A stretch of DNA of 60,829 nucleotides from an uncultured Gammaproteobacteria bacterium (GTDB lineage: Bacteria; Pseudomonadota; Gammaproteobacteria; Ga0077536). This document shows, piece after piece, positions 3 to 12,005 of the stretch (positions are counted from its first letter, which is position 1; the number at the start of each line of letters is the position of its first letter). The position numbers and the translations under genes were made by a program. The stretch lies in the NCBI GenBank assembly GCA_964642505.1, contig CAZXQY010000004.1, forward strand, positions 1 to 60,829, given 5' to 3'. The notes beneath the pieces were generated by a model. The model saw only the letters and a program-made list of their open reading frames with translations. It did not search any database and was not told where the DNA came from.

Positions 3-1229
3 ATCAGTATGTTGCATGTTGTGGGCTCTGTGTCCCATGGAGCTAGAGCTAGAGTGACAACCGTAATCGTCGGAATATTAGCGGTCGTTGGTATTTGGTT
101 GATGCTTCAAATCAAAGTGGGAAACCCGGTAGAGGGAAGTAATCTTCTAAAAGAAACCTCCGATTTTAATACCGCCGTACGAGCGGTTAATGCTCATTTC
201 CCAGGTCTTATGACTTTGGAGATAGTGTTTGAAGGCAAGGAGAAGAATAACCGTTTCGTCGCAAGTTCTCCGGAAGCTCAAGCGACGATGTTCCAATTGC
301 AGAGGTTTTTGGAGGTGCAGGATCCTCCGCCGGAAGCTACGTTATCGTTTCCAGACTATTTGCCTGAGGTAAATCGTTTGTTTTCAGGAGGGAACCCTAA
401 ATGGGCGCCTCTCGATGCGAAGGTTGAATCTGTAAATGCGGCGGTTAACGCTCTCATGGTCGGATCTAGCCCGAAGGCGTATTCCCACGTGACTGATTTC
501 ACGTTCTCTAACGGAACGCTATCTCTTTGGTACAAAGATAACAAACAAAAAACAGTTGATACTGCCATTCACCAAACCAAAGCTGGCCTTGAAGTTGTGG
601 GATTGGACCACGAGGACTACCAAATTCGGCTGGGTACTGGGGCTATCGCTTTGCAACAATCGGTAAACGATACCGTGGACAGATATCAATGGACGATATT
701 GTTTTGGCTAAATGTAGTTATTCTGTTTACCTGCAGTTTTTCGTACCGCTCAGTAGTGGCCGGGATTTTGTTGTTGCTGCCGGTTAATTTTTCCAATGTC
801 CTCTTGGCATCTGTGATGGTATTGATGGGTATCGGGTTGGATGTGAATAGCTTGCCGATCGCAGCGATTGGGATTGGTGTGGGGATAGATTATGGTATCT
901 ATCTCCTGAGTCGCATCTGCGAGGAGTTTAGAGAAAATCAGGATCATGGGGAAGCCATCCAACGTGCGGTTACGACCACTGGAAAGGCGATCTTTTTTAC
1001 GGCGACCATCGTTTTGATTGGAATTCTTCCCTGGTATTTTCTGTCTGAACTGAAATTCCTGGCGGACATGGGGTTGTTATTGGTGATGATCATGTTGATT
1101 AATATGGTAATAGCGCTGGTGGTATTACCGCTTCTGGTTTATTTGGTTAAGCCGAAGTTTATCGAACGGGAGCATTTGATAATTTCCGAAAACGTCGACT
1201 TGTCGGAAATAATGGGTAGGACGCAGTAG
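3..1229 (+). CDS. MMPL/RND-family inner-membrane transporter, C-terminal half (5'-truncated by window edge)
   Basis: Frame open from position 3; periplasmic loop followed by several TM helices with RND/MMPL motifs GIGVGIDYGIY and TTGKAIFFTA. Confidence 0.85.
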   Translation: MSMLHVVGSVSHGARARVTTVIVGILAVVGIWLMLQIKVGNPVEGSNLLKETSDFNTAVRAVNAHFPGLMTLEIVFEGKEKNNRFVASSPEAQATMFQLQRFLEVQDPPPEATLSFPDYLPEVNRLFSGGNPKWAPLDAKVESVNAAVNALMVGSSPKAYSHVTDFTFSNGTLSLWYKDNKQKTVDTAIHQTKAGLEVVGLDHEDYQIRLGTGAIALQQSVNDTVDRYQWTILFWLNVVILFTCSFSYRSVVAGILLLLPVNFSNVLLASVMVLMGIGLDVNSLPIAAIGIGVGIDYGIYLLSRICEEFRENQDHGEAIQRAVTTTGKAIFFTATIVLIGILPWYFLSELKFLADMGLLLVMIMLINMVIALVVLPLLVYLVKPKFIEREHLIISENVDLSEIMGRTQ

Positions 1230-1252: not shown

Positions 1253-2299
1253 ATGGAATTTGAAATCATGAAAAATAATTGTTGGAGTTTAAAAGTCATT
1301 TCATTTTTTGGGATCGTAGCGGCGGTATCGTTGGCTGCGTTCGCGGATGGACACGGAGAGAGTGAGGAGGCTGTTCATATAATCCGAAGTGGCATACCGC
1401 ATGACGCGCTCTATGCTCTAGAGATGGATGGCAAATGGGGATTGGCCGTAGGTAATTTCGGATTGATGTTGGAAACGTCTGACGGGGGCGAATCTTGGAC
1501 TTTAGTGCCGCCTGTCAAGGAATCAAATGGGGAAACTTTAAAGAGCGCACTTTTGGCGGTAGCTCGCGATGGTGAGAACGTTATCCTAACGGGGCAGCAA
1601 GGTCTTGTCGTTACTAGACAGGGGTCGGCAGATTGGGAAGTGCAAGATAGTGGGCTAGATGCCAGATTGTTAAATGTTGATATCGCTGGAGGACTGACGA
1701 TGGCAGTGGGTGAGTTCGGTTTTATCGGACGTTCTGTCGATGGCGGTAAGAGTTGGAAACAAGTAAGTGTCAATTGGGAAAGATTCAATGACGAAGGCTA
1801 TGAACCGCACTTATATGATGTTGTGATTCAAGCTAACGGCGTGGTGTTAATAGCTGGAGAGTTTGGCTTAATCCTTCGATCGACTGACGGTGGTATGAAT
1901 TTCGATGCTGCCAATCGAGGGGAACAATCTGTATTTGATATTCATCTGGCCGAGGACGGGACAAGGAATGGATTCGCGGTTGGACAAGAGGGCTTGGTAT
2001 TGAAAACATCGGACGCCGGGGCTTCGTGGACCAAACTTGCGAAAGCCACAAACGCCAATCTCTTAGGGGTCTGGAGTGGGCATGACGAAGTCGTGATAAC
2101 TGGTATAAGAGAGCTCCTTCGGTCGAGTGACGGAGGATCGACTTTTCAAAGTGGCCAGACGGACATACAGATCGGGCGGAATTGGTTCCAAGGTGTTGCT
2201 TCGGGTACAGCGGAAAAAAATTCTGGTGTCGGAGTTTTGGCAGAAGAATCTGTCTATATAGTAGGGCATCAAGGAAGTATTGCCCGGATAGTGAAATAG
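1253..2299 (+). CDS. YCF48-like / BNR-repeat beta-propeller periplasmic protein
   Basis: Signal peptide; repeated Asp-box motifs (TSDGGESW, SVDGGKSW, STDGGMNF, TSDAGASW, SSDGGSTF); typical partner of RND/DUF1302/DUF1329; alternative start 1268. Confidence 0.85.
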   Translation: MEFEIMKNNCWSLKVISFFGIVAAVSLAAFADGHGESEEAVHIIRSGIPHDALYALEMDGKWGLAVGNFGLMLETSDGGESWTLVPPVKESNGETLKSALLAVARDGENVILTGQQGLVVTRQGSADWEVQDSGLDARLLNVDIAGGLTMAVGEFGFIGRSVDGGKSWKQVSVNWERFNDEGYEPHLYDVVIQANGVVLIAGEFGLILRSTDGGMNFDAANRGEQSVFDIHLAEDGTRNGFAVGQEGLVLKTSDAGASWTKLAKATNANLLGVWSGHDEVVITGIRELLRSSDGGSTFQSGQTDIQIGRNWFQGVASGTAEKNSGVGVLAEESVYIVGHQGSIARIVK

Positions 2300-2699: not shown

Positions 2700-5162
2700 G
2701 TGAGAAAACACACAATCGCGCGGAGTTTAATCTCAGGTATTGCTGTCGGTGGTATCCTTTTTGCAGGAACCGTATCGGCAGTTGATTGGAACATAACTGG
2801 ATTTTTCCGACAGGAGATAGCGTATAGTCTCCACGATGATGGGAACCAGAATAACACAATGGGTAACCCATTTAATCATCGAATCGTTCCGCAGATAACT
2901 TCTGCGGCTTTCATGAATGATGCAACCCTGCAGAACGGCTTGAATGCAAACGCTAGAGCTGCGACGACGGTTTTTAATTCTAGAGCAAATGGAATTCCAG
3001 GCGGCCTTCTGCCCGGCGGATTGTTTGCAAGTGGTGAGTTGGCTAAGGATGCCTTCACACTCAATGCAAACGGATCGCATAATCGGGTCACAGGTGTCTT
3101 GCCAGCGGGTTCTTTTACCAGTTCGCCAGTATCTTGTAAATTCGGTACTTCGGGTGGTAGAGACATTACCAACGGCAGAAACCGAGGTATTCTAGGGCTT
3201 GGATCGCCGCAAGTTGGACAAGTGGATGTACCCTTCCCGCTCATGATGTGTCCTAATGGACAAGGTTCGACGCAGGGTAACGCTGGTCTTTCCCAAATAG
3301 TAGGGCTGACTCTGAATAATGGAGCCATTGTACGGGGACCTGCGCCAGCTATAGGGTTGCCAAATACAGGTACTGACTTTTCTGCTTCACACGCTAATCA
3401 GAGTGCTGGGGAAGCGATTTCCCAGGCGGGTCTAGCGCTGAGCGATGAAATCGATTTCAACGCTTTCAATTCTCGAGTTGAAGTGGATGTACAGGGACAG
3501 TTCACGCCGGACTTAGCGATGTTTATGAAGGTTCGCGCATACTTTGATGCGACGAGAAACTTTGTAGATGGGGGCACATCGGGAGGCATAGATGACCATT
3601 ATGCGAATCCATACTTTGGGAATCGCCGAGCCACTTTAACGGAGTGGAATAGCCCGGATGCAATCATCGATATCCCGTTCTTATACTTCGACTGGAGTAA
3701 GGGACCGTTATGGATACGTCTTGGTAACCAGGTTATCGCGTGGGGTGAAGCATATTTCTTTAGAACTATGGACGTAGCGAACGGCTTAGACTTAAGACGT
3801 CACTTGGTGTTGGGTCCAGGAGCGGAGGAGTATCAGGATCAACGTATCGGATCACCTGCCATACGGGTGAGTTACACCTTCAAAAATGGTTGGGAAATAG
3901 ATGCGTTTGCGCAAATGTTTTCCCCAACGATTCTGCCGGGTCAAAACACGCCTTACAACCTCGCTCCCACGACTATCTATATGGATGACTCCGATGGATA
4001 CGACGATGCTGAGGGTGCGATTAATTTCGGCTTTAAGTTAACGATGCCGCTGACAGACGCTTTCACTGCGATGATAGCTTATGCAAACCGACGTAATCCG
4101 GATGGCTATTTTACTGGAGCTGATGCACCAATTGTCCATCAAGGAAGGGCGAATCCTTTCTGTTTGAACCAGCACAATGCCACAAATAACGTCATGGCTG
4201 CATTAGGCAACCCGCACTTAGGTTTGGGTATGGAAGCGATGCCAACGTTGGATACTAGCCAACGTACGATGAGACGCGGTTGTGGCACGAGTTTCGCGCC
4301 AGATGATTTCGCCGCAAGCTCTTTAGAGTACTGGTATCGAATTCGTGACGGTCGTATCAACAGCAGCAATTACGTTTCGACTCAAGTCGACGAGTTTCCG
4401 GCTTCGCGTTGGGCGACTCGTGAAATATTTGGGTTTGGTAACGAGGGTAACTTTGTTGATACCTATCGAACATTGGAAGGTTTCCGTAGCTCGTTTGGTA
4501 ATATCACCCAATATGTGGGCCGGTATTTCAGACGGGAAAGAAACTACATGATTGGTGGTAACTACATAATTACCGCCAATGATCCAAACTCGATTTTCGA
4601 CCAGTTGATTATTCGTGGTGAGGTGAACTGGACGCCTAATAAAGCGTTTACGAATGACCTCAGTTTCAACTTCACAGAGAAGGACGATATTGTGTCGTCG
4701 TTGATTTTTGAGAAGTACCACAGATTCAGTATGGATTTCCCTGCGACTTATATGGTCTTGCAGTGGATGCACCGTACAGAATCCGACATGTTTGGCCGAG
4801 ATCTAGATAAGCAAGATACTAGAAAGATTTCGGACTTTATGGATCCTACAACGGGTGCTTTCACGGCTTGTGCGTTTGACAATGCCTGTGACGATCCTCG
4901 AGGTGACAGCAGTGCTAATTACGTGGTGTTCGCGTTTCAACAACCTTTTCCAAATCTGATTTGGAGAGCGGATTTTGCCATTATGGTTGATGTTGCGGGC
5001 GGTTACCTCGTTCAGCCTGGAATAAGATATCGTCCGTCGGCTAAGTACCAATGGGACTTGTACGCGACGATGATTAACTCACCGGGTGGTGATAACGATA
5101 CGGTTACGGAGAGCTTAGATTGGGCGGATGAAATATTCGTTCGATTTACATATTTCTTCTAA
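2700..5162 (+). CDS. DUF1302-family outer-membrane beta-barrel protein
   Basis: GTG start with RBS; signal peptide; motifs RLGNQVIAWGEA and DVANGLDLRRH; C-terminal RFTYFF (terminal Phe typical of BAM substrates); genomic context. Confidence 0.8.
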   Translation: MRKHTIARSLISGIAVGGILFAGTVSAVDWNITGFFRQEIAYSLHDDGNQNNTMGNPFNHRIVPQITSAAFMNDATLQNGLNANARAATTVFNSRANGIPGGLLPGGLFASGELAKDAFTLNANGSHNRVTGVLPAGSFTSSPVSCKFGTSGGRDITNGRNRGILGLGSPQVGQVDVPFPLMMCPNGQGSTQGNAGLSQIVGLTLNNGAIVRGPAPAIGLPNTGTDFSASHANQSAGEAISQAGLALSDEIDFNAFNSRVEVDVQGQFTPDLAMFMKVRAYFDATRNFVDGGTSGGIDDHYANPYFGNRRATLTEWNSPDAIIDIPFLYFDWSKGPLWIRLGNQVIAWGEAYFFRTMDVANGLDLRRHLVLGPGAEEYQDQRIGSPAIRVSYTFKNGWEIDAFAQMFSPTILPGQNTPYNLAPTTIYMDDSDGYDDAEGAINFGFKLTMPLTDAFTAMIAYANRRNPDGYFTGADAPIVHQGRANPFCLNQHNATNNVMAALGNPHLGLGMEAMPTLDTSQRTMRRGCGTSFAPDDFAASSLEYWYRIRDGRINSSNYVSTQVDEFPASRWATREIFGFGNEGNFVDTYRTLEGFRSSFGNITQYVGRYFRRERNYMIGGNYIITANDPNSIFDQLIIRGEVNWTPNKAFTNDLSFNFTEKDDIVSSLIFEKYHRFSMDFPATYMVLQWMHRTESDMFGRDLDKQDTRKISDFMDPTTGAFTACAFDNACDDPRGDSSANYVVFAFQQPFPNLIWRADFAIMVDVAGGYLVQPGIRYRPSAKYQWDLYATMINSPGGDNDTVTESLDWADEIFVRFTYFF

Positions 5163-5189: not shown

Positions 5190-5218
5190 AGAGCCGGCCA
5201 TGTGCCGGCTCTTTTTTT
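5190..5218 (+). terminator. Rho-independent terminator
   Basis: AGAGCCGGC-CATGT-GCCGGCTCT followed by a T-run. Confidence 0.9.
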
Positions 5219-5410
5219 GGTCTGGCAACATGTCTAGGGACAGATTGGTCTCAGCGAGTTTCGGTGGTGTATATTTCCAATGTAAATAATTAATATTTCC
5301 GTAGGCATCTTTGTAGGTTTTGTCTTAGAGTTTGGTGCTATTTCGTTATAGACTAACGTTATGCCCTTTAGAAAGAGATTAGTGAACAATAGTTAAACGA
5401 GAAACAAACA

Positions 5411-6322
5411 ATGAACAAAGCGATCTTTCCATTGAAGATTTTGATTTTTTTTATACTAGCTGGCTCGGTGTTCGCACAGGAAGCTGGTGATGATTCTGAT
5501 TCTGTAACGTCAGAGACCGCAACTTCTCAAACTCCGGCAGTAGGGAATAGTCTGGAAAATAAACAAGAAACAAATATTGACGGGCCACCTAGTAGTGAGA
5601 ATTCAGAAGTAGTGCCAACTGACGATTCTACTCCCAGCGTGATTCCAGGCGTAACGCCATTACTTGAAGAAGAGGAGAGTGCGGGTTTTATCGTTGATTT
5701 TTATCGAGGGATAAAGACTTTATTAGTTCTGGGAGGGCCAGTTGTATGGATTCTTCTAGTCGTATCAATACTCGGTTTGACGCTAGCCCTAACGAAATTT
5801 CTTCAGTTTTCTAGGACTAATGTTGTGGCAATTAAAGTGATAGATGACGCTATCTCCCTTTGGTTGGAAGGAAATATCGCGAAAGGTAGCGGAAATCTAG
5901 AACGTTCAGCCATCCCGATTGCCGCAGATATAAAATATGGTCTTGAAATGAGAGGGACACTCGATCAGGAATCACTTCAGGATGAAATGATTAGAAGATC
6001 GTCTTCGTTTCTTAGGGAGTATTCTCACAATCTCAAGCCGTTGGAGTTGATTTACTATCTTGCCCCCGTCATGGGGTTGTTGGGAACTGTGCTCGGGATG
6101 ATAGACGCCTTCAGAGGGCTTGCGGTGACCGCTGGCGCTGCAGGCGAATCCTCTGCTCTAGCTAGTGGGATCTGGGAAGCTTTATTGACGACGGCAGTTG
6201 GATTGTCGATTGCTATTCCTTTTGCTGTGATGCATGCGATTTTAGAAACGAAGCTTGATACTCTAACTGAGCAAGTTGGAGATATGATCACTCGTGTTTG
6301 CTCGAGGAATGAGGTCAGCTAG
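5411..6322 (+). CDS. exbB: MotA/TolQ/ExbB proton-channel family protein with N-terminal signal peptide and acidic extension
   Basis: APVMGLLGTVLGMI and GIWEALLTTAVGL motifs. Confidence 0.85.
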   Translation: MNKAIFPLKILIFFILAGSVFAQEAGDDSDSVTSETATSQTPAVGNSLENKQETNIDGPPSSENSEVVPTDDSTPSVIPGVTPLLEEEESAGFIVDFYRGIKTLLVLGGPVVWILLVVSILGLTLALTKFLQFSRTNVVAIKVIDDAISLWLEGNIAKGSGNLERSAIPIAADIKYGLEMRGTLDQESLQDEMIRRSSSFLREYSHNLKPLELIYYLAPVMGLLGTVLGMIDAFRGLAVTAGAAGESSALASGIWEALLTTAVGLSIAIPFAVMHAILETKLDTLTEQVGDMITRVCSRNEVS

Positions 6323-6324
6323 CG

Positions 6325-6753
6325 TTGAATATGCAGGTCGCGTTGTTGGGGAATAGGAAAACCAGGAGGCGGTCTGGAAGAATGTCCCTTACCCCGCTCA
6401 TTGACTGCGTTTTCATTTTATTAGTTTTTTTCATGTTGCAGACCAATTTTTTAAGGCCGCGTGCGATAGAGTTCTCTCAATCCGCTTCTAGCGCTCAAAT
6501 CGATAGTGAAACGCCTTTAATAGCCATAGAGCTTCGACTAGATGGAACGATCTGGCTCAATGGAGTGGGAAGTAGCATGGAAGGACTCACGTCCTATGCT
6601 GCCAGCCTTACCGAACCGAGCCAAAGCCGAGTAATGCTTGCCGTTGATCCCCAGGTTAAATTGCAGGCTGCCGTCGATATTATGGACATGCTAAATACGA
6701 ATCAAATTTTCAATATTTCGTTGGCGGCTGCCCGTCGCTTTGAAGATGACTGA
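6325..6753 (+). CDS. exbD: ExbD/TolR family protein (Asp-type)
   Basis: LTPLIDCVFILLVFFML TM motif; alternative start 6331. Confidence 0.85.
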   Translation: MNMQVALLGNRKTRRRSGRMSLTPLIDCVFILLVFFMLQTNFLRPRAIEFSQSASSAQIDSETPLIAIELRLDGTIWLNGVGSSMEGLTSYAASLTEPSQSRVMLAVDPQVKLQAAVDIMDMLNTNQIFNISLAAARRFEDD

Positions 6754-6770: not shown

Positions 6771-7211
6771 ATGAAAATTCGCAGCAGACGGCATACCATG
6801 GAAAGACTAACGGAGAAAGTTACTGGGAAAAGATCTGCTCGGGAAGAGAATGTCATCCCTATGATTAACATCATTTTTCTCCTACTCCTGTATTTTATGG
6901 TAGTGGGAAATTTATCACCCGATTATAATGTTAATCCTCCCTTCGCGTCTCAGGAGGCTGAGTCGTCATCGCTTGTACCAACGGTAAGTGTTACAAAAGA
7001 AGGGCAGCTTAGATTCGAAAATGTTCCTGTAAGCTGGGAAGAGCTGACATCTAGGCTCAGCGGTATCAGCGACTATGAAAAAATAAAAATTTATGCAGAT
7101 GCCGAGTCGGATGCCCTAACTATTTCGGAAATAATGAAAACTGCAGCAAATGCTGGGATTTTACAGTTTATTTTAGTTACTCAAAAAAAAATATCGGATG
7201 AATTAGAATGA
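6771..7211 (+). CDS. exbD: ExbD/TolR family protein (Asn-type)
   Basis: VIPMINIIFLLLLYFMV TM motif; C-terminal IYADAES. Confidence 0.8.
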   Translation: MKIRSRRHTMERLTEKVTGKRSAREENVIPMINIIFLLLLYFMVVGNLSPDYNVNPPFASQEAESSSLVPTVSVTKEGQLRFENVPVSWEELTSRLSGISDYEKIKIYADAESDALTISEIMKTAANAGILQFILVTQKKISDELE

Positions 7212-8326
7212 AATATTCATCTAGGCGCGTTGTTATTTTGGTTGGACTGTTAGTTGCTTCGAGTATTATCCATGCCATTGTTTCATGGCAGGTGGGTCGA
7301 AAAATAGATGGACCGGAGAAAGTGCTTCCTCCTGAAGAGGAGGTTGTGCAAATAGTTATGGATAAGCCACCGGAACCAGAACTAGAAAAAACTCCGCCGC
7401 CAGAAGAGCAATTGGAATTCGAAGAGGAATTGGAATTCGATCCGCCTGAAATATTGTTAGCCCCTAAGTCGGTGGCGCCACCTCCGCCGGATGTGACGGT
7501 TGCTTTAAAAGCTCAATCAGGAGGGTTCCAGGGTATAGACATTCCTACGGGTATAGCCGCAGTGCCGCTAAGTGAAGGCTCAGGTATTGGCGGTTTCAAA
7601 ACTGGTATAGGCAATGGTTTGGGAGATGGGACGGCGAGATTCGCTGCCTACATAGCAGGTCTACGAGAAGCAGGATTGGATGTAGTGTTTGCGATCGATG
7701 CTACGGGTTCAATGGATTGGGTGATAGATGAAGTTAGGGATAGGATCCAGGACATTGCTCAAACCGTAAGATCTCTGGTTCCGATTGCGCGATTTGGCGT
7801 GGTTGCTTACCGTGATCATAACGATCCAGAGTTTACTACGAGGGTGCACGAATTAACCTACAGCACAGCTAAAATAAAGCGTTTTATGGCGCAACTCGAG
7901 GCGAAAGGCGGTGGCGATTGGTTTGAAGCGATAGATGCTGGAATCAGGGATGCGATAGAGCAATCGGGATGGCGGATAGGGGCTAGGCGTCTGATTATTG
8001 TGGTTGGCGATGCGCCACTTAAGCAGGGTCAATTGGGTAAGGTAGTTCGTCTAGCTGAGCAGTTTGGTCGATCAGGTGGAACGATATCGACGTTGGATGT
8101 AAGTGATCAGGCTAATCCTTCGTTACTTGAAGCGAAGGTTGGGAGAAAAGTAGCCAGACCTCTCTATCGCAGTGCCCCCATGCATTCTTTTCTTGTTATA
8201 GGAGAAGCAGGGGGAGGAGACGCTGCTACTCTCGACGGAGAGCTAAAATTAACCAAACGTTTGGTGAAGCTTATTATGGGCGATCAGTTTGCAAATGAGA
8301 TGCAGGCACTTTTGGATGCGTTGTGA
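7208..8326 (+). CDS. Membrane-anchored Pro/Glu-rich protein with C-terminal von Willebrand A (vWA) domain
   Basis: N-terminal TM containing SSIIHA; PPEPE/PPPEE/APPPPD linker; vWA motifs DVVFAIDATGSM, VVAYRD, GGGDWFEA, VVGDAP; 4-bp overlap with exbD. Confidence 0.8.
   Translation: MKYSSRRVVILVGLLVASSIIHAIVSWQVGRKIDGPEKVLPPEEEVVQIVMDKPPEPELEKTPPPEEQLEFEEELEFDPPEILLAPKSVAPPPPDVTVALKAQSGGFQGIDIPTGIAAVPLSEGSGIGGFKTGIGNGLGDGTARFAAYIAGLREAGLDVVFAIDATGSMDWVIDEVRDRIQDIAQTVRSLVPIARFGVVAYRDHNDPEFTTRVHELTYSTAKIKRFMAQLEAKGGGDWFEAIDAGIRDAIEQSGWRIGARRLIIVVGDAPLKQGQLGKVVRLAEQFGRSGGTISTLDVSDQANPSLLEAKVGRKVARPLYRSAPMHSFLVIGEAGGGDAATLDGELKLTKRLVKLIMGDQFANEMQALLDAL
7403..7438 (+). repeat. 18-bp tandem duplication inside the vWA protein linker (EEQLEF/EEELEF)
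   Basis: GAAGAGCAATTGGAATTC GAAGAGGAATTGGAATTC, one mismatch. Confidence 0.85.
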
Positions 8327-8342
8327 TACGGGAACATTTATT

Positions 8343-10565
8343 ATGACGAAGCTACTTGAATACCCCATTTGTTTTCTATTTGCTACGTTGATATTAGTAG
8401 GTATATCAGGTGATACGAATGCTTCGTCTAAGAGTGCGATTGCCGGGGCAAGCAAATTGTCAGCTAAATTGGACGGCGACTTAGGGGCGACCGATCTTTT
8501 TGATATTGCTAATAAGGTCGGACCCTTTATAGATGAAATCAGAAGGGCTGACCCGAGTGCTCGCTCGTTAAAAGAAATGAAACGTATTTTGAATGACATG
8601 AGGCAAAAGACATCCTCCAAGGTTGCGGAGATAGAGGCGTCGATGGGGGATAATGAAGGTCAGTTGGAACGACTCTATCGTTCGCAAGAATGGGATGATA
8701 TGAGTTTTGCGTTGGCTGCTTTTCCATATTGGAGAGCGTGGATTGATTTAGAATTAGCTTATCGAGAGCAAAATATCGGGATAATGGGGGCAGAAAAAAC
8801 GACTGCTTTACTACCGGCGGAAAAAGGCTTTAGAGGGGCTTCTTTGCAGTTTTATAGGCCAGGCTTGGTCTATGGCGGTTGGTTAGGTTTAGGTTATATA
8901 GAGCTGGCAAAAAAAAAGTTTGAGAGAGCCCGCCAAATTTTTGAGAGTTTAGAAGTTGCGCTAGCCGGCGAAGAGTCTCCGATAATGGAGGTCGTACGGG
9001 CTGAACTCGAATTACTCGACGCTCGGAGTGGTAAGGTTTCTAATGTAACCGATCTCGGGTTGATCGACGATGATAAAGCGAGGATATTGCGACTTGAAGC
9101 CTTTGGGCTTTTAAAGGAGAGCAGGGCTTCTGGTGGGAGACCGTTAGAGGCTGCTAAACGACTTAATGCCCTGATAAAGGCAGGCTATATCGACCAATCT
9201 TTGATTAACGATATGATGATTTATGCTCAGGAAATATCAGGAGTCAAAGTTGGTTATTATACCGACCTTGCGGGCGCTGAATTTGCTTTAAATAACAACC
9301 ATTATTATAACGCGATGCAAAAGTATCAGTACTTCTTTAGCAATAACATCGCCCCACGGAAAGTTGATTTTAGTAACTATCGGTATCGTTGGGCATTAAG
9401 TGCTTTCAAGGCGAAAATTTACCAACCTGCGATCGATATCTTAGAAAAGTTGCAACGTAAAAAGAATCTGAACCAGGAACTTGACGTAGCTTCGGCCAAG
9501 TTACTTTATGCAATCTATGCAGCTAAGGAAGATGGCGGAAGTTCGTCTGCTCGAAATAGAAAAAATCTTAGGAAAGCTGCGAGGCGTTTTGTTAGGAAAA
9601 GTCCAAATGATCCAGACGCCGACAGCGCTCGCTTGTTGATAGCTCAAACTACTAGTAATGCGAAATCTGCTTTACGATCTCTCGACCAGATTTCTTCTAA
9701 CAAACTAAAAGGAGATGTTGGAAGAACAGCTTTCACGATACTGGCAAAGGAATTCAGTCGATATGTGAGACGTTCCAGTATAAAAAAGGCTAAAGGATTG
9801 GCAACCGAAGGTATCGCCGCATTCAAAGAATTGCCGAAAACCGATAGATCTGACCCGTTTTATTTTTCTGTTGTTTTACAAATGAGGGCTCTAGTTGACC
9901 CTAAACCAGAGGATGTCCTCGTCGCGATTTCACAAATAGAGGAAAAAGAACCTAAGAACCTAGATATTAGGAGGGCGCTCGTTTGGTCCAGGTTACAAAT
10001 CTATAACCGGATGGGTGGCACTAATGTTGAAAATTATATAAGGACCCTAGCGTCCTCTAAAATACCTGGCTGGCAGATGGAGTTCTTATACCCTTTTGTG
10101 GATGGGATGAAAAATGCCAGCTTACGCCTCAGCTTGGCGAAGCTGCTACATCCTTCAGCTAAATCACAGCCTGATATGGATAAGAGAATTTGGTCGACCA
10201 TAATTGATAGTATGCTTGAGTCGGGTTTGGTTGAGGATGCCTATGGAGATGCTATTAAATTTACCAAAGCCTATCCCTCTTCAGGGGATGCGTGGAGGTT
10301 GCTCGGTCGTAGCGCGGAGCGAGTAGATAAACCCTTTGAGGCTGATAGAGCATGGGGGGTGATCACTAAGAAGGCTATTCCTACCCAGGAAGTATGGTGG
10401 GAAGGTATGATAAGTCGGGCTAGAATCCGATCGGATCGGAGAATGGATCAGGCATGTAGTCTTTTGAAAAAAATGATTAGAAGTGAAGAGCTTGTTCCTA
10501 AAACTCAGAAAAAACAGTTCGGACAGTTGAGGTCTAGTCTAGACTGTTCGGTGGAGACTGGATAG
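8343..10565 (+). CDS. Large exported helical-repeat (TPR-like) protein
   Basis: Likely start MTKLLE with signal-like hydrophobic stretch (ORF track starts at 8289); TPR-like segments WLGLGYIELAKKKFERARQIF, YRWALSAFKAKIYQPAIDIL, YPSSGDAWRLLG. Confidence 0.6.
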   Translation: MTKLLEYPICFLFATLILVGISGDTNASSKSAIAGASKLSAKLDGDLGATDLFDIANKVGPFIDEIRRADPSARSLKEMKRILNDMRQKTSSKVAEIEASMGDNEGQLERLYRSQEWDDMSFALAAFPYWRAWIDLELAYREQNIGIMGAEKTTALLPAEKGFRGASLQFYRPGLVYGGWLGLGYIELAKKKFERARQIFESLEVALAGEESPIMEVVRAELELLDARSGKVSNVTDLGLIDDDKARILRLEAFGLLKESRASGGRPLEAAKRLNALIKAGYIDQSLINDMMIYAQEISGVKVGYYTDLAGAEFALNNNHYYNAMQKYQYFFSNNIAPRKVDFSNYRYRWALSAFKAKIYQPAIDILEKLQRKKNLNQELDVASAKLLYAIYAAKEDGGSSSARNRKNLRKAARRFVRKSPNDPDADSARLLIAQTTSNAKSALRSLDQISSNKLKGDVGRTAFTILAKEFSRYVRRSSIKKAKGLATEGIAAFKELPKTDRSDPFYFSVVLQMRALVDPKPEDVLVAISQIEEKEPKNLDIRRALVWSRLQIYNRMGGTNVENYIRTLASSKIPGWQMEFLYPFVDGMKNASLRLSLAKLLHPSAKSQPDMDKRIWSTIIDSMLESGLVEDAYGDAIKFTKAYPSSGDAWRLLGRSAERVDKPFEADRAWGVITKKAIPTQEVWWEGMISRARIRSDRRMDQACSLLKKMIRSEELVPKTQKKQFGQLRSSLDCSVETG

Positions 10566-10622: not shown

Positions 10623-12005
10623 ATGGTTCATATAAAAAAGTATGATGTAGATTTTAGTAAGAGAAAGTTTTTAGAGAATACCGCCGCTGGGTTTTTAGGC
10701 GCGGGTGTACTTTGCCCAGTGTGGAGCGCGCTTGCTGAAAACGGAGATTTTTCTGCTTCGTATCCTGACGAGTTACTATCTATCGAAAACTATACGAAAG
10801 GGGCACTTAAAACAGGAGATACTATAGATGCTAGCAACGTAGATTTGCTTCAAGACCTTTTAGATGGCGTTCGCTATACCCAAATCAAACAGATGGGCAG
10901 AAAATTGGAGATCGTTCCGGTTACTACCGACATGACGAAACTGAGTCCGGTGGAGTATACTGAGGCAACCCTGCGTAACAAAGGTTTGGCGAAGTTTGAT
11001 TCGAAAGGGAATGTTGTTGTGGGAGGCGGGAAACCTTGGATAGGAGGAACACCTTTTCCGGAACCGACCAGCGGGGTAGAGTTATTTGCGAACATTACCT
11101 TAACGTGGGGTAGGCACGATGTTTCTTTTTATCCTGTGAAAAGTTATGAACAAGATAAAAACGGTAGAATAGGGTACAAGTATGAATTGGGATGGATAGA
11201 ATTTGCCCCTGTCGGTCGTGTGAAGGTTGAACCGACGCCATATTGGCCGGGTCACGAGGATAAATTGCGATATCAATCTGTTTTTTTCACGATCCCTCAA
11301 GATTATAAAGGTTCGGCATTTCTAAATACCTGGCATTACGATCAAACAAGATTTCCGGAATTATTGGGTTATCTACCGCAATTCAAACGAGTTCGAAATT
11401 TCCCTACAAGCCAACGTTTTGAACCCTTACTACCTGGGTCGCATTTGTATTTCTCGGATGCTTGGGCAGCAGGAGATCCTTACCTCACTTGGGGTAACTT
11501 CAAGATAATAGGACGTGGGCCGTTTTTGGCAGGACTCACGGAGAATTGGGATTCCAGTGATGAGAACTGGGAAGGTACTACTCATGGGGGCGCTAAAGGC
11601 GATACTTTTTGGGATACCAAAGTGGAGCTAATACCGGAGGCCATCGTTGCTGAAGCTGAACCGACAGGTTACGCAAGGGCGCCTGTAAGCAAAAAGCGGG
11701 TCTGGTTCGACGCTCGAACAGGGTTGCCTCTGATGATGCTTACGTTCGATCGAAAAGGGGAGATGTGGAAAACATTTGATGGTGCCTATTCTGTTTATGA
11801 CAACAAGGGTAAACAGGTTATGGACGGAGCGTACCCATATTGGTCTTGGACTCACGTACACGCTTTCGACATACAGAGCAGCCATATGTCCAGACTCAAG
11901 CAAGTTCGAAAGATAGCCGGAGGACATACTTGGTGGGTCAATAAAGGGACAGAGATTTATAACAAATTTTTGACGAAGTCTGCTTTACGAAGAATGGGAA
12001 CATAG
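10623..12005 (+). CDS. DUF1329-family periplasmic protein (LolA-like fold) with Tat-like signal
   Basis: SKRKFL plus hydrophobic leader; GDTIDASNV, PFPEP, YLPQFKRVR, FDRKGEMWK motifs typical of DUF1329. Confidence 0.8.
   Translation: MVHIKKYDVDFSKRKFLENTAAGFLGAGVLCPVWSALAENGDFSASYPDELLSIENYTKGALKTGDTIDASNVDLLQDLLDGVRYTQIKQMGRKLEIVPVTTDMTKLSPVEYTEATLRNKGLAKFDSKGNVVVGGGKPWIGGTPFPEPTSGVELFANITLTWGRHDVSFYPVKSYEQDKNGRIGYKYELGWIEFAPVGRVKVEPTPYWPGHEDKLRYQSVFFTIPQDYKGSAFLNTWHYDQTRFPELLGYLPQFKRVRNFPTSQRFEPLLPGSHLYFSDAWAAGDPYLTWGNFKIIGRGPFLAGLTENWDSSDENWEGTTHGGAKGDTFWDTKVELIPEAIVAEAEPTGYARAPVSKKRVWFDARTGLPLMMLTFDRKGEMWKTFDGAYSVYDNKGKQVMDGAYPYWSWTHVHAFDIQSSHMSRLKQVRKIAGGHTWWVNKGTEIYNKFLTKSALRRMGT

Follow-up and report, generated by a model that had tools for sequence, protein, structure and literature searches.

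The stretch of DNA analyzed here (hereafter the window) comprises 60,829 nucleotides of contig CAZXQY010000004.1 from an uncultured Gammaproteobacteria bacterium (GenBank assembly GCA_964642505.1). Its forward strand carries an open reading frame (ORF) at 7208-8326, open over 372 amino acids (aa), which is a gene for a probable force transducer with a domain of the von Willebrand factor A (vWA) type. The genes around it lie on the same strand in the order MMPL/HAE3 RND (cut), YCF48/BNR, DUF1302, exbB, exbD, exbD, vWA, TPR-like (tetratricopeptide repeat) and DUF1329:

9..1229 (+): MMPL/HAE3 RND transporter, C-terminal half, AmeD-like; the contig start truncates the gene
1253..2299 (+): YCF48/BNR beta-propeller, AmeC-like (Pfam)
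2700..5162 (+): DUF1302 outer-membrane barrel, AmeA-like (Pfam)
5190..5222 (+): terminator-like hairpin and T run between DUF1302 and exbB (consensus match only)
5411..6322 (+): ExbB/TolQ-family motor subunit; S119 in the first transmembrane helix (TM1), T226, E256 and T261 conserved
6325..6753 (+): ExbD-1, membrane Asp present
6771..7211 (+): ExbD-2, Asn where the membrane Asp is expected
7208..8326 (+): vWA transducer, 372 aa (Pfam, alignment, AlphaFold2 (AF2) model, Foldseek)
8343..10565 (+): all-helical TPR-like protein, 740 aa, likely the periplasmic partner (model, locus linkage)
10623..12005 (+): DUF1329/LolA-like protein, AmeB-like (Pfam)

The start of the vWA gene and the stop of ExbD-2 share four bases (ATGA at 7208-7211). 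The original prediction, made from the sequence alone, had described this 4-bp overlap with exbD; it stands, with the refinement that two exbD genes are present and that the second is the overlapping one. Promoter-like sites were not in excess over shuffled sequence (11 versus a mean of 15). Within the vWA gene, four segments were distinguished:

7220..7309 (+): membrane helix near the N-terminus, aa 5-34, which carries S18 and H22 (alignment, AF2, hydropathy)
7346..7360 (+): D-box-like strand V47-x-I49-x-M51 between prolines, a candidate ExbD-binding motif (sequence pattern)
7310..7636 (+): Pro/Glu-rich, then Gly-rich linker, aa 35-143, putatively periplasmic (composition, low predicted local distance difference test score, pLDDT)
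7637..8323 (+): vWA domain and flanking helices, with D164-x-T166-x-S168, GGG-D237-x-x-E240 and D268 (Pfam, AF2, Foldseek)

The protein contains a single strong hydrophobic segment (19-aa Kyte-Doolittle maximum of 2.53 at residue 8), preceded by K/R/R and enclosing SSIIHA with S18 and H22; the sole other hydropathy window above 1.2 is the first strand of the vWA domain, which is buried. The linker contains 16 Pro and 15 Glu among 67 residues (35-101), followed by 13 Gly among 42 (102-143). The DATGSM motif occupies residues 164-169 (nt 7697-7714), and Pfam matches to VWA_4 (6e-12), VWA and VWA_2 extend across about residues 158-308, while no match to TonB_C, TonB_2 or TolA was found in the 372-aa protein at E<=0.1. 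In the AF2 model, built on a 55-row alignment, residues 5-34 form a helix, the linker is of low confidence and an alpha/beta Rossmann-like domain is confidently modeled, with the vWA domain of BatB, Rpn10 and integrin I domains as top Foldseek matches. A sequence search of the PDB returned no relative at E<0.2. The architecture proposed originally (a single N-terminal transmembrane helix with S-x3-H, a Pro/Glu-rich linker and Gly-rich spacer, and a vWA domain with DATGSM in place of TonB_C) was recovered in full.

Conservation was assessed in a main alignment of 121 rows, 5 of them N-truncated, for which the 120 top-ranking of 335 matches were aligned with the query. S18 and H22 were present in all 116 rows that reach the helix. 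The SHLS motif of TonB and TolA, to which S-x3-H had been assigned, is only half present: the S-H half is there, and V29 and I33 stand at H+7 and H+11 instead of the L-x3-S half. Among 119 rows, 83% had a hydrophobic residue in D-box-like column 47, 99% in column 49 and 98% in column 51; an alignment-free control (94 versus 1 of 116) was set aside because its pattern omitted Phe and was hence biased, and only the column counts were used. Conserved linker positions are L69, F71, P79-P80, L83, P91-P93 and A102, with L69, F71, L83 and A102 kept at 98-100% (column counts), which is high for a spacer.

The canonical metal ion-dependent adhesion site (MIDAS) of the integrin I-domain type reads DxSxS...T...D, and MIDAS sites have a role in force-bearing adhesion. 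Among the 121 rows, D164, T166, E240 and D268 were kept in 121, S168 in 120 and D237 in 112. A metal site in the vWA domain is likely, since the MIDAS-type residues are invariant or nearly so. The site is non-canonical in that Thr replaces the first Ser, Asp (D237) stands at the Thr position and E240 is invariant, a variant that is also common among 135 distant hidden Markov model (HMM) matches. The basic N-terminal tail, together with relatives in which the same helix comes after a cytoplasmic FHA domain or an RND C-terminus, leads us to infer a periplasmic vWA domain.

The distant HMM matches came from a 1.84-billion-member set, and 105 of the 135 had a hydrophobic helix well upstream of the MIDAS. 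S-x3-H lay within the membrane helix in 85 of these 105, versus 7% in shuffled segments, which exceeds chance. The Ser/His invariance in two further alignments (A4 and A5) results from selection and was not counted as evidence. On the motor side, ExbB S119 was kept in 76/76 rows with a residue there (78 matches, duplicate genomes included); in the alignment it corresponds to the Ser found in TolQ from the same genome. TonB S16/H20 contact ExbB S34/W38 in cryo-EM structures, and the L/S half of SHLS is less conserved in Ton systems, according to the available text of PMC12215075. At the sequence level, V47-x-I49-x-M51 fits the D-box pattern as defined in the part of PMC10907165 available to us. 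As a separate observation, residue 11 (window 7238-7240), a Leu in the present protein, is Trp in 107/114 homologues; this family Trp may be a stand-in for the Trp that the ExbB of this motor lacks.

A survey of 81 loci, reduced to 66 by duplicate removal, showed exbB adjoining the vWA gene in 45/54 distinct loci with enough flank, leaving 9 without an adjacent exbB. The idea that such copies run motor-free was mostly rejected, as whole-genome searches found a 40-42% identical ExbB elsewhere in 4 of the 5 genomes tested. Three relocated ExbBs were placed in a tree, where they fall within the clade of cognate ExbBs (97/93); the three relocated motors examined have two exbD genes each and lie beside HpnN/HAE3-type RND genes. 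Relocated exbB-exbD-exbD sets were seen at L180, L181 and L183 (genomes G346, G336 and G344) and on G338:C24, with HpnN above the cut-off in L181; no tonB was seen next to these four sets. In G344, a related operon (L182) has the order exbB-exbD-exbD-tonB-receptor, and this order shows the TonB slot directly. The same operon led us to reject the notion that the Asn of ExbD-2 is specific to the vWA system, as it combines a canonical tonB with the same Asp/Asn pair. In the cognate motors that have been relocated, both ExbDs carry Asp, so the Asn is neither specific nor universal.

These data give good support to one part of the original prediction, that the vWA protein sits in the TonB slot, here that of an ExbBD motor: the Ser and His are invariant, ExbB has its TM1 Ser, a D-box-like strand is present, and the L182 operon has tonB at the equivalent position. 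Very probably, S18/H22 dock on ExbB TM1 at S119, residues 47-51 form a strand that attaches to the periplasmic domains of ExbD, and the linker of 110 residues lets the vWA domain reach across the periplasm.

The gene directly after the vWA gene encodes the TPR protein in 65/65 loci. The 740-aa protein has a signal-peptide-like N-terminus, a conserved C705/C735 pair and an all-helical solenoid model, which matches generic solenoids only (query TM-scores no higher than 0.3). TPR was found in 47 of 51 near-complete family genomes and vWA scored in 44 of them, the three discordances being two contig ends and one N gap. Docking used vWA residues 135-372, the mature TPR protein and Mg, with the median of three runs taken. 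The pair scored 0.59 versus 0.26 for the best control, with at least 31% of contacts agreeing between runs and a partner pLDDT of at least 76. In the docking benchmark, the mark was reached by 116/157 solved and 2/215 mismatched pairs. Docking support is weak, because the passes at 0.60 or under comprise only 18 solved pairs and both mismatched ones. On balance, we lean slightly towards a vWA domain that binds the TPR protein. The other part of the original prediction, a pull on a partner by metal-dependent adhesion, is more tentative: a contact in which the MIDAS metal meets an acidic residue of TPR is somewhat less likely than not, with the invariant E98, E105 and E109 as candidates on the TPR side.

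The module is flanked in the window by all four families of an AmeABCD-like set (DUF1302, DUF1329, YCF48/BNR and HAE3 RND); full-length orthologues of the truncated RND protein in relatives measure about 800 aa. DUF1302 or DUF1329 was present within the fetched flanks in 34/37 loci with both flanks visible, and in 58/66 loci overall. This 2.6-Mb genome has 19 DUF1329 and 5 DUF1302 matches, and relatives have up to 22 DUF1329 matches, which is a large family-wide DUF1329 expansion. Four near-complete genomes without TPR were also without the adjacent DUF1329 paralogue, and in three genomes vWA and TPR were present with that paralogue missing at the cut-off. This co-loss test was not counted, because the genes are linked and the four genomes are only 90-92% complete. 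We tentatively regard the AmeABCD-like cassette as the target of the motor arm, at slightly less than even odds. In 26/40 family loci a CobW/COG0523-family GTPase gene lies between TPR and DUF1329 (for example, L009:13440-14423); it is absent in this window.

More independent support for the cassette link comes from a separate clade, 34% identical across the vWA region and mostly with the order vWA-exbB-exbD-exbD-TPR. A TPR+LolA-like gene follows TPR in 7/10 loci of this clade with downstream DNA (L093, L095, L096, L099, L106, L108 and L115; not L112, L114 and L118). DUF1302 lies upstream in L101 and L106, together with DUF1329 in L106, and L093 has an MMPL fragment. Members of the TPR+LolA-like family have about 575 aa and a lipoprotein-like start, and they combine a TPR/YfiO-like N-terminal portion with a LolA_like domain at the C-terminus; the gene follows an 830-aa TPR protein, and the ORFs are partial in L095 and L108. 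Elsewhere, a 1209-aa ORF (L098:1000-4626, P0391) joins a full MMPL/HAE3 RND protein in frame to an S-x3-H vWA transducer and directly precedes exbB-exbD-exbD. Only one cluster with this arrangement was found among 664-2116-aa proteins (19 members, 98% identical; P0392).

Other architectures were found among more distant relatives. The layout FHA - TM(S-x3-H) - linker - vWA was confirmed for P0296, P0307, P0319, P0333, P0348 and P0377, with about 20 similar matches. It resembles GltG and suggests phospho-regulated vWA transducers, as far as domain order can tell; no motor gene was detected at L140 and L143, the only two FHA-type loci examined. Secreted vWA proteins that belong to this subfamily but have no linker were found at L041-L043, L045, L046 and L049, and L043, L046, L047 and L049 have a common two-gene upstream neighborhood.

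For the published systems compared here, our statements refer to those parts of the cited papers that were available to us. A class of "vWA force transducers" of the SHLS type, with Tichowtungia aerotolerans as prototype, was predicted beside tolQ-like, two tolR-like and TPR genes by Williams-Jones et al. (2025, Mol Biol Evol; PMC12204202); the prediction comes without experiments or mutants, and gliding was suggested. We therefore rejected the description of the present protein as a categorically new transducer class. Both share the S-H transmembrane helix, the motor box, a linker of about 100 Pro-rich residues, the vWA C-terminus and the synteny with a tolQ/exbB-like gene, two heterologous tolR/exbD-like genes and a TPR gene, in a different order. 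The present locus differs from the prototype in having one transducer instead of two, a downstream TPR gene and an ExbD-2 with Asn, and in being embedded in a DUF1302/DUF1329/YCF48/HAE3-RND cassette. Sections 4 and 8 of PMC12204202 do not mention this cassette, and a text search of the supplement (figures not covered) did not find DUF1302 or DUF1329. All five features of the predicted family (helix with S/H, motor box, linker, vWA without a TonB/TolA C-terminal domain, synteny) can be recognized in our sequences. The second family of the same paper, TPH-vWA, has a transmembrane Asp and no exbD/tolR, whereas here Asp is absent from the helix and the gene has two exbD neighbors.

Compared with E. 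coli TonB-ExbBD (available parts of PMC12215075 and PMC10907165), the shared features are S-x3-H, the ExbB TM1 Ser, a D-box-like strand, a Pro-rich linker and a gene position equal to that of tonB in the related operon L182. Unlike in E. coli, there is no TonB_C, no adjacent receptor and no L-x3-S half, and Leu replaces the ExbB Trp. The vWA arm probably acts in the manner of TonB without being one itself. The gliding motor AglRQS-GltG/GltJ of Myxococcus (PMC11761067, in the part available) is of the 5:1:1 type; its two ExbD-like subunits differ from each other, a TolA-like arm acts on periplasmic scaffolds, and in the model of this system the linker of GltG wraps around GltD. GltG differs from the present protein in its TonB-CTD-like end (CTD, C-terminal domain) and FHA domains, and CglB, the vWA component there, is an outer-membrane adhesin encoded apart from GltG.

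As for the cassette, available text links AmeABCD of Castellaniella defragrans to monoterpene tolerance (PMC6394551) and a DUF1302-DUF1329-BNR-RND cassette to fatty esters (bioRxiv 10.1101/2020.07.04.188060), and describes cassette cofitness with a proposed export of a wall component (bioRxiv 10.1101/072470). A predicted barrel and a DUF1302-DUF1329 complex with an interface predicted TM-score (ipTM) of 0.84 are given in the accessible part of PMC13499233. The same four gene families as in AmeABCD and in the Pseudomonas and Shewanella cassettes flank the module here (PMC6394551; 10.1101/072470; 10.1101/2020.07.04.188060), and in the text available from these three sources transport direction and substrate are unsettled. 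Literature searches, with most subscription journals outside their coverage, returned no paper pairing DUF1329 with ExbD and no experimental study of vWA transducers.

Together, the above observations are consistent with a vWA arm of an ExbB-ExbD-ExbD motor that grips the TPR protein and works on the DUF1302/DUF1329/YCF48/RND transport machine, a reading to which we give a probability of roughly 0.4. The membrane helix would dock on ExbB through S18/H22, the D-box-like strand would engage the ExbD pair, and the linker would allow the vWA domain to reach the TPR protein in the periplasm. By gripping TPR, the vWA domain could pass proton-driven motion on to the DUF1302/DUF1329/RND machine; for example, the LolA-fold DUF1329 carrier might be pulled on or off the DUF1302 barrel, driving or resetting the passage of a hydrophobic substrate. 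The fullest version is unlikely: a third Ton/Tol-type system in which a 5:2 motor with an Asp/Asn ExbD pair, through a metal-dependent vWA grip on TPR, would energize hydrophobic trafficking by DUF1302, LolA-fold and HAE3-RND proteins.

A number of results weigh against this reading at the level of motor and partner. The ExbB Trp that partners the His is replaced by Leu (62/76), at a position where TolQ of this genome has Trp, and in ExbD-2 Asn replaces the essential membrane Asp in 62/62 own-type loci (duplicates included); with these two replacements, the motor, as judged from its residues, departs from the E. coli model. Genome G335 has the arm, and its best ExbB in the whole-genome search is only 28% identical. 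The vWA-TPR docking returned no interface, so the MIDAS cannot be placed at the contact. At the level of the cassette, the own-type loci are mostly from one family and hence not independent, most DUF1329 copies are without a neighboring motor because the family is DUF1329-rich, and four near-complete genomes without vWA and TPR keep 7-14 DUF1329 matches. The RND::vWA ORF could be a fusion or a lost stop codon in one lineage. The cassettes of Castellaniella, Pseudomonas and Shewanella are described, in the available text, as four genes with no ExbBD, vWA or TPR.

Several further points of the same kind would be expected under the main rival, a genuine motor arm with a general role in envelope assembly or remodeling through TPR as scaffold, a single motor working in trans for many cassettes or the target lying outside the cassette, and the neighborhood reflecting co-regulation or history. 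Near-complete genomes usually have one vWA/TPR set versus 3-22 DUF1329 matches. A terminator-like hairpin, by consensus match, splits DUF1302 from exbB, and in three well-flanked loci, namely L018, L065 and L034 (the paralogue on C2), neither DUF1302 nor DUF1329 occurs in the fetched flanks. The published gene order, TPR-exbB-exbD-exbD-vWA-vWA, is seen in L121 and L122, which encode 35%-identical homologues (240 aa, E 4e-38); these two loci adjoin DUF4159 instead, with no LolA-fold gene within about 8.7 kb. However, the association with LolA-fold, DUF1302 and RND genes recurs in the 34%-identical clade with another gene order, and again as the RND fusion, and we consider a general envelope role somewhat unlikely.

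It is improbable that the arm docks on the motor with a vWA domain serving as static scaffold or metal-handling module, and with the linker rather than the MIDAS binding TPR. The unusual conservation of the linker (L69, F71, L83 and A102), the non-canonical MIDAS, the downstream CobW-family gene and the Myxococcus linker wrapped around GltD (in the part of PMC11761067 available) would all fit such an arrangement, but the vWA part alone (135-372) gave a weak docking pass, and CobW is missing in this window and in 14/40 loci. Gliding motility or surface adhesion as the powered process, which the available text of PMC12204202 itself proposes for the class and which the GltG-like layout of the FHA-TM(S-x3-H)-vWA relatives recalls, is highly improbable here, as the neighbors identified are transporter, LolA-fold and barrel genes. 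Least credible is a vWA protein whose signal peptide is cleaved off and which is secreted, or no more than tethered, and functionally apart from the motor. Secreted proteins of the same subfamily do exist and 9/54 loci are without adjacent exbB, but Ser and His are invariant inside the helix, the motor is retained in trans in 4/5 genomes tested, and the same helix also occurs internally after FHA or RND domains, a position that no ordinary N-terminal signal peptide could have.

To our knowledge, only two outputs of TonB/TolA-type arms are established in E. coli-like cells, receptor unplugging and TolB-Pal release. Both work by beta-strand addition. The vWA transducers were predicted in 2025 without function or mutant, while DUF1302/DUF1329 cassettes are widespread, with lipid, ester and terpene phenotypes and the mechanism lacking. 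If the cassette link is real, the transducer and the cassette questions each supply the other with an assay; if it is merely positional, the locus adds one more member to a predicted class.

The host genome also has TonB_C matches on contigs C13 and C38, a TolA match on C82 and three TonB-dependent receptor barrels. The idea that the vWA arm replaces a missing TonB was rejected for this reason, and the vWA module is an additional system, because the genome keeps canonical TonB, TolA and receptors. The full-length vWA protein was found only in its own family among 300 sampled genomes of the class, and only in this genome among 401 genomes of the phylum.

A second vWA+TPR pair, without exbBD, lies at G000:C2:47262-50616 (L034:11263-14617), about 11 kb from another DUF1329-DUF1302-MMPL set. 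Its neighbors are nucleoside transporter, NAMPT, HAD and hydantoinase genes, and the syntenic loci L016 and L018 retain exbBD. A frameshift in the paralogous TPR gene on C2 was considered and rejected, as the break is an N gap. In the window itself, the DUF1329 protein encoded next to the TPR gene has a twin-arginine-like leader, spotted by eye (window 10623-10700), with KRKFL here and RRHF in relatives.

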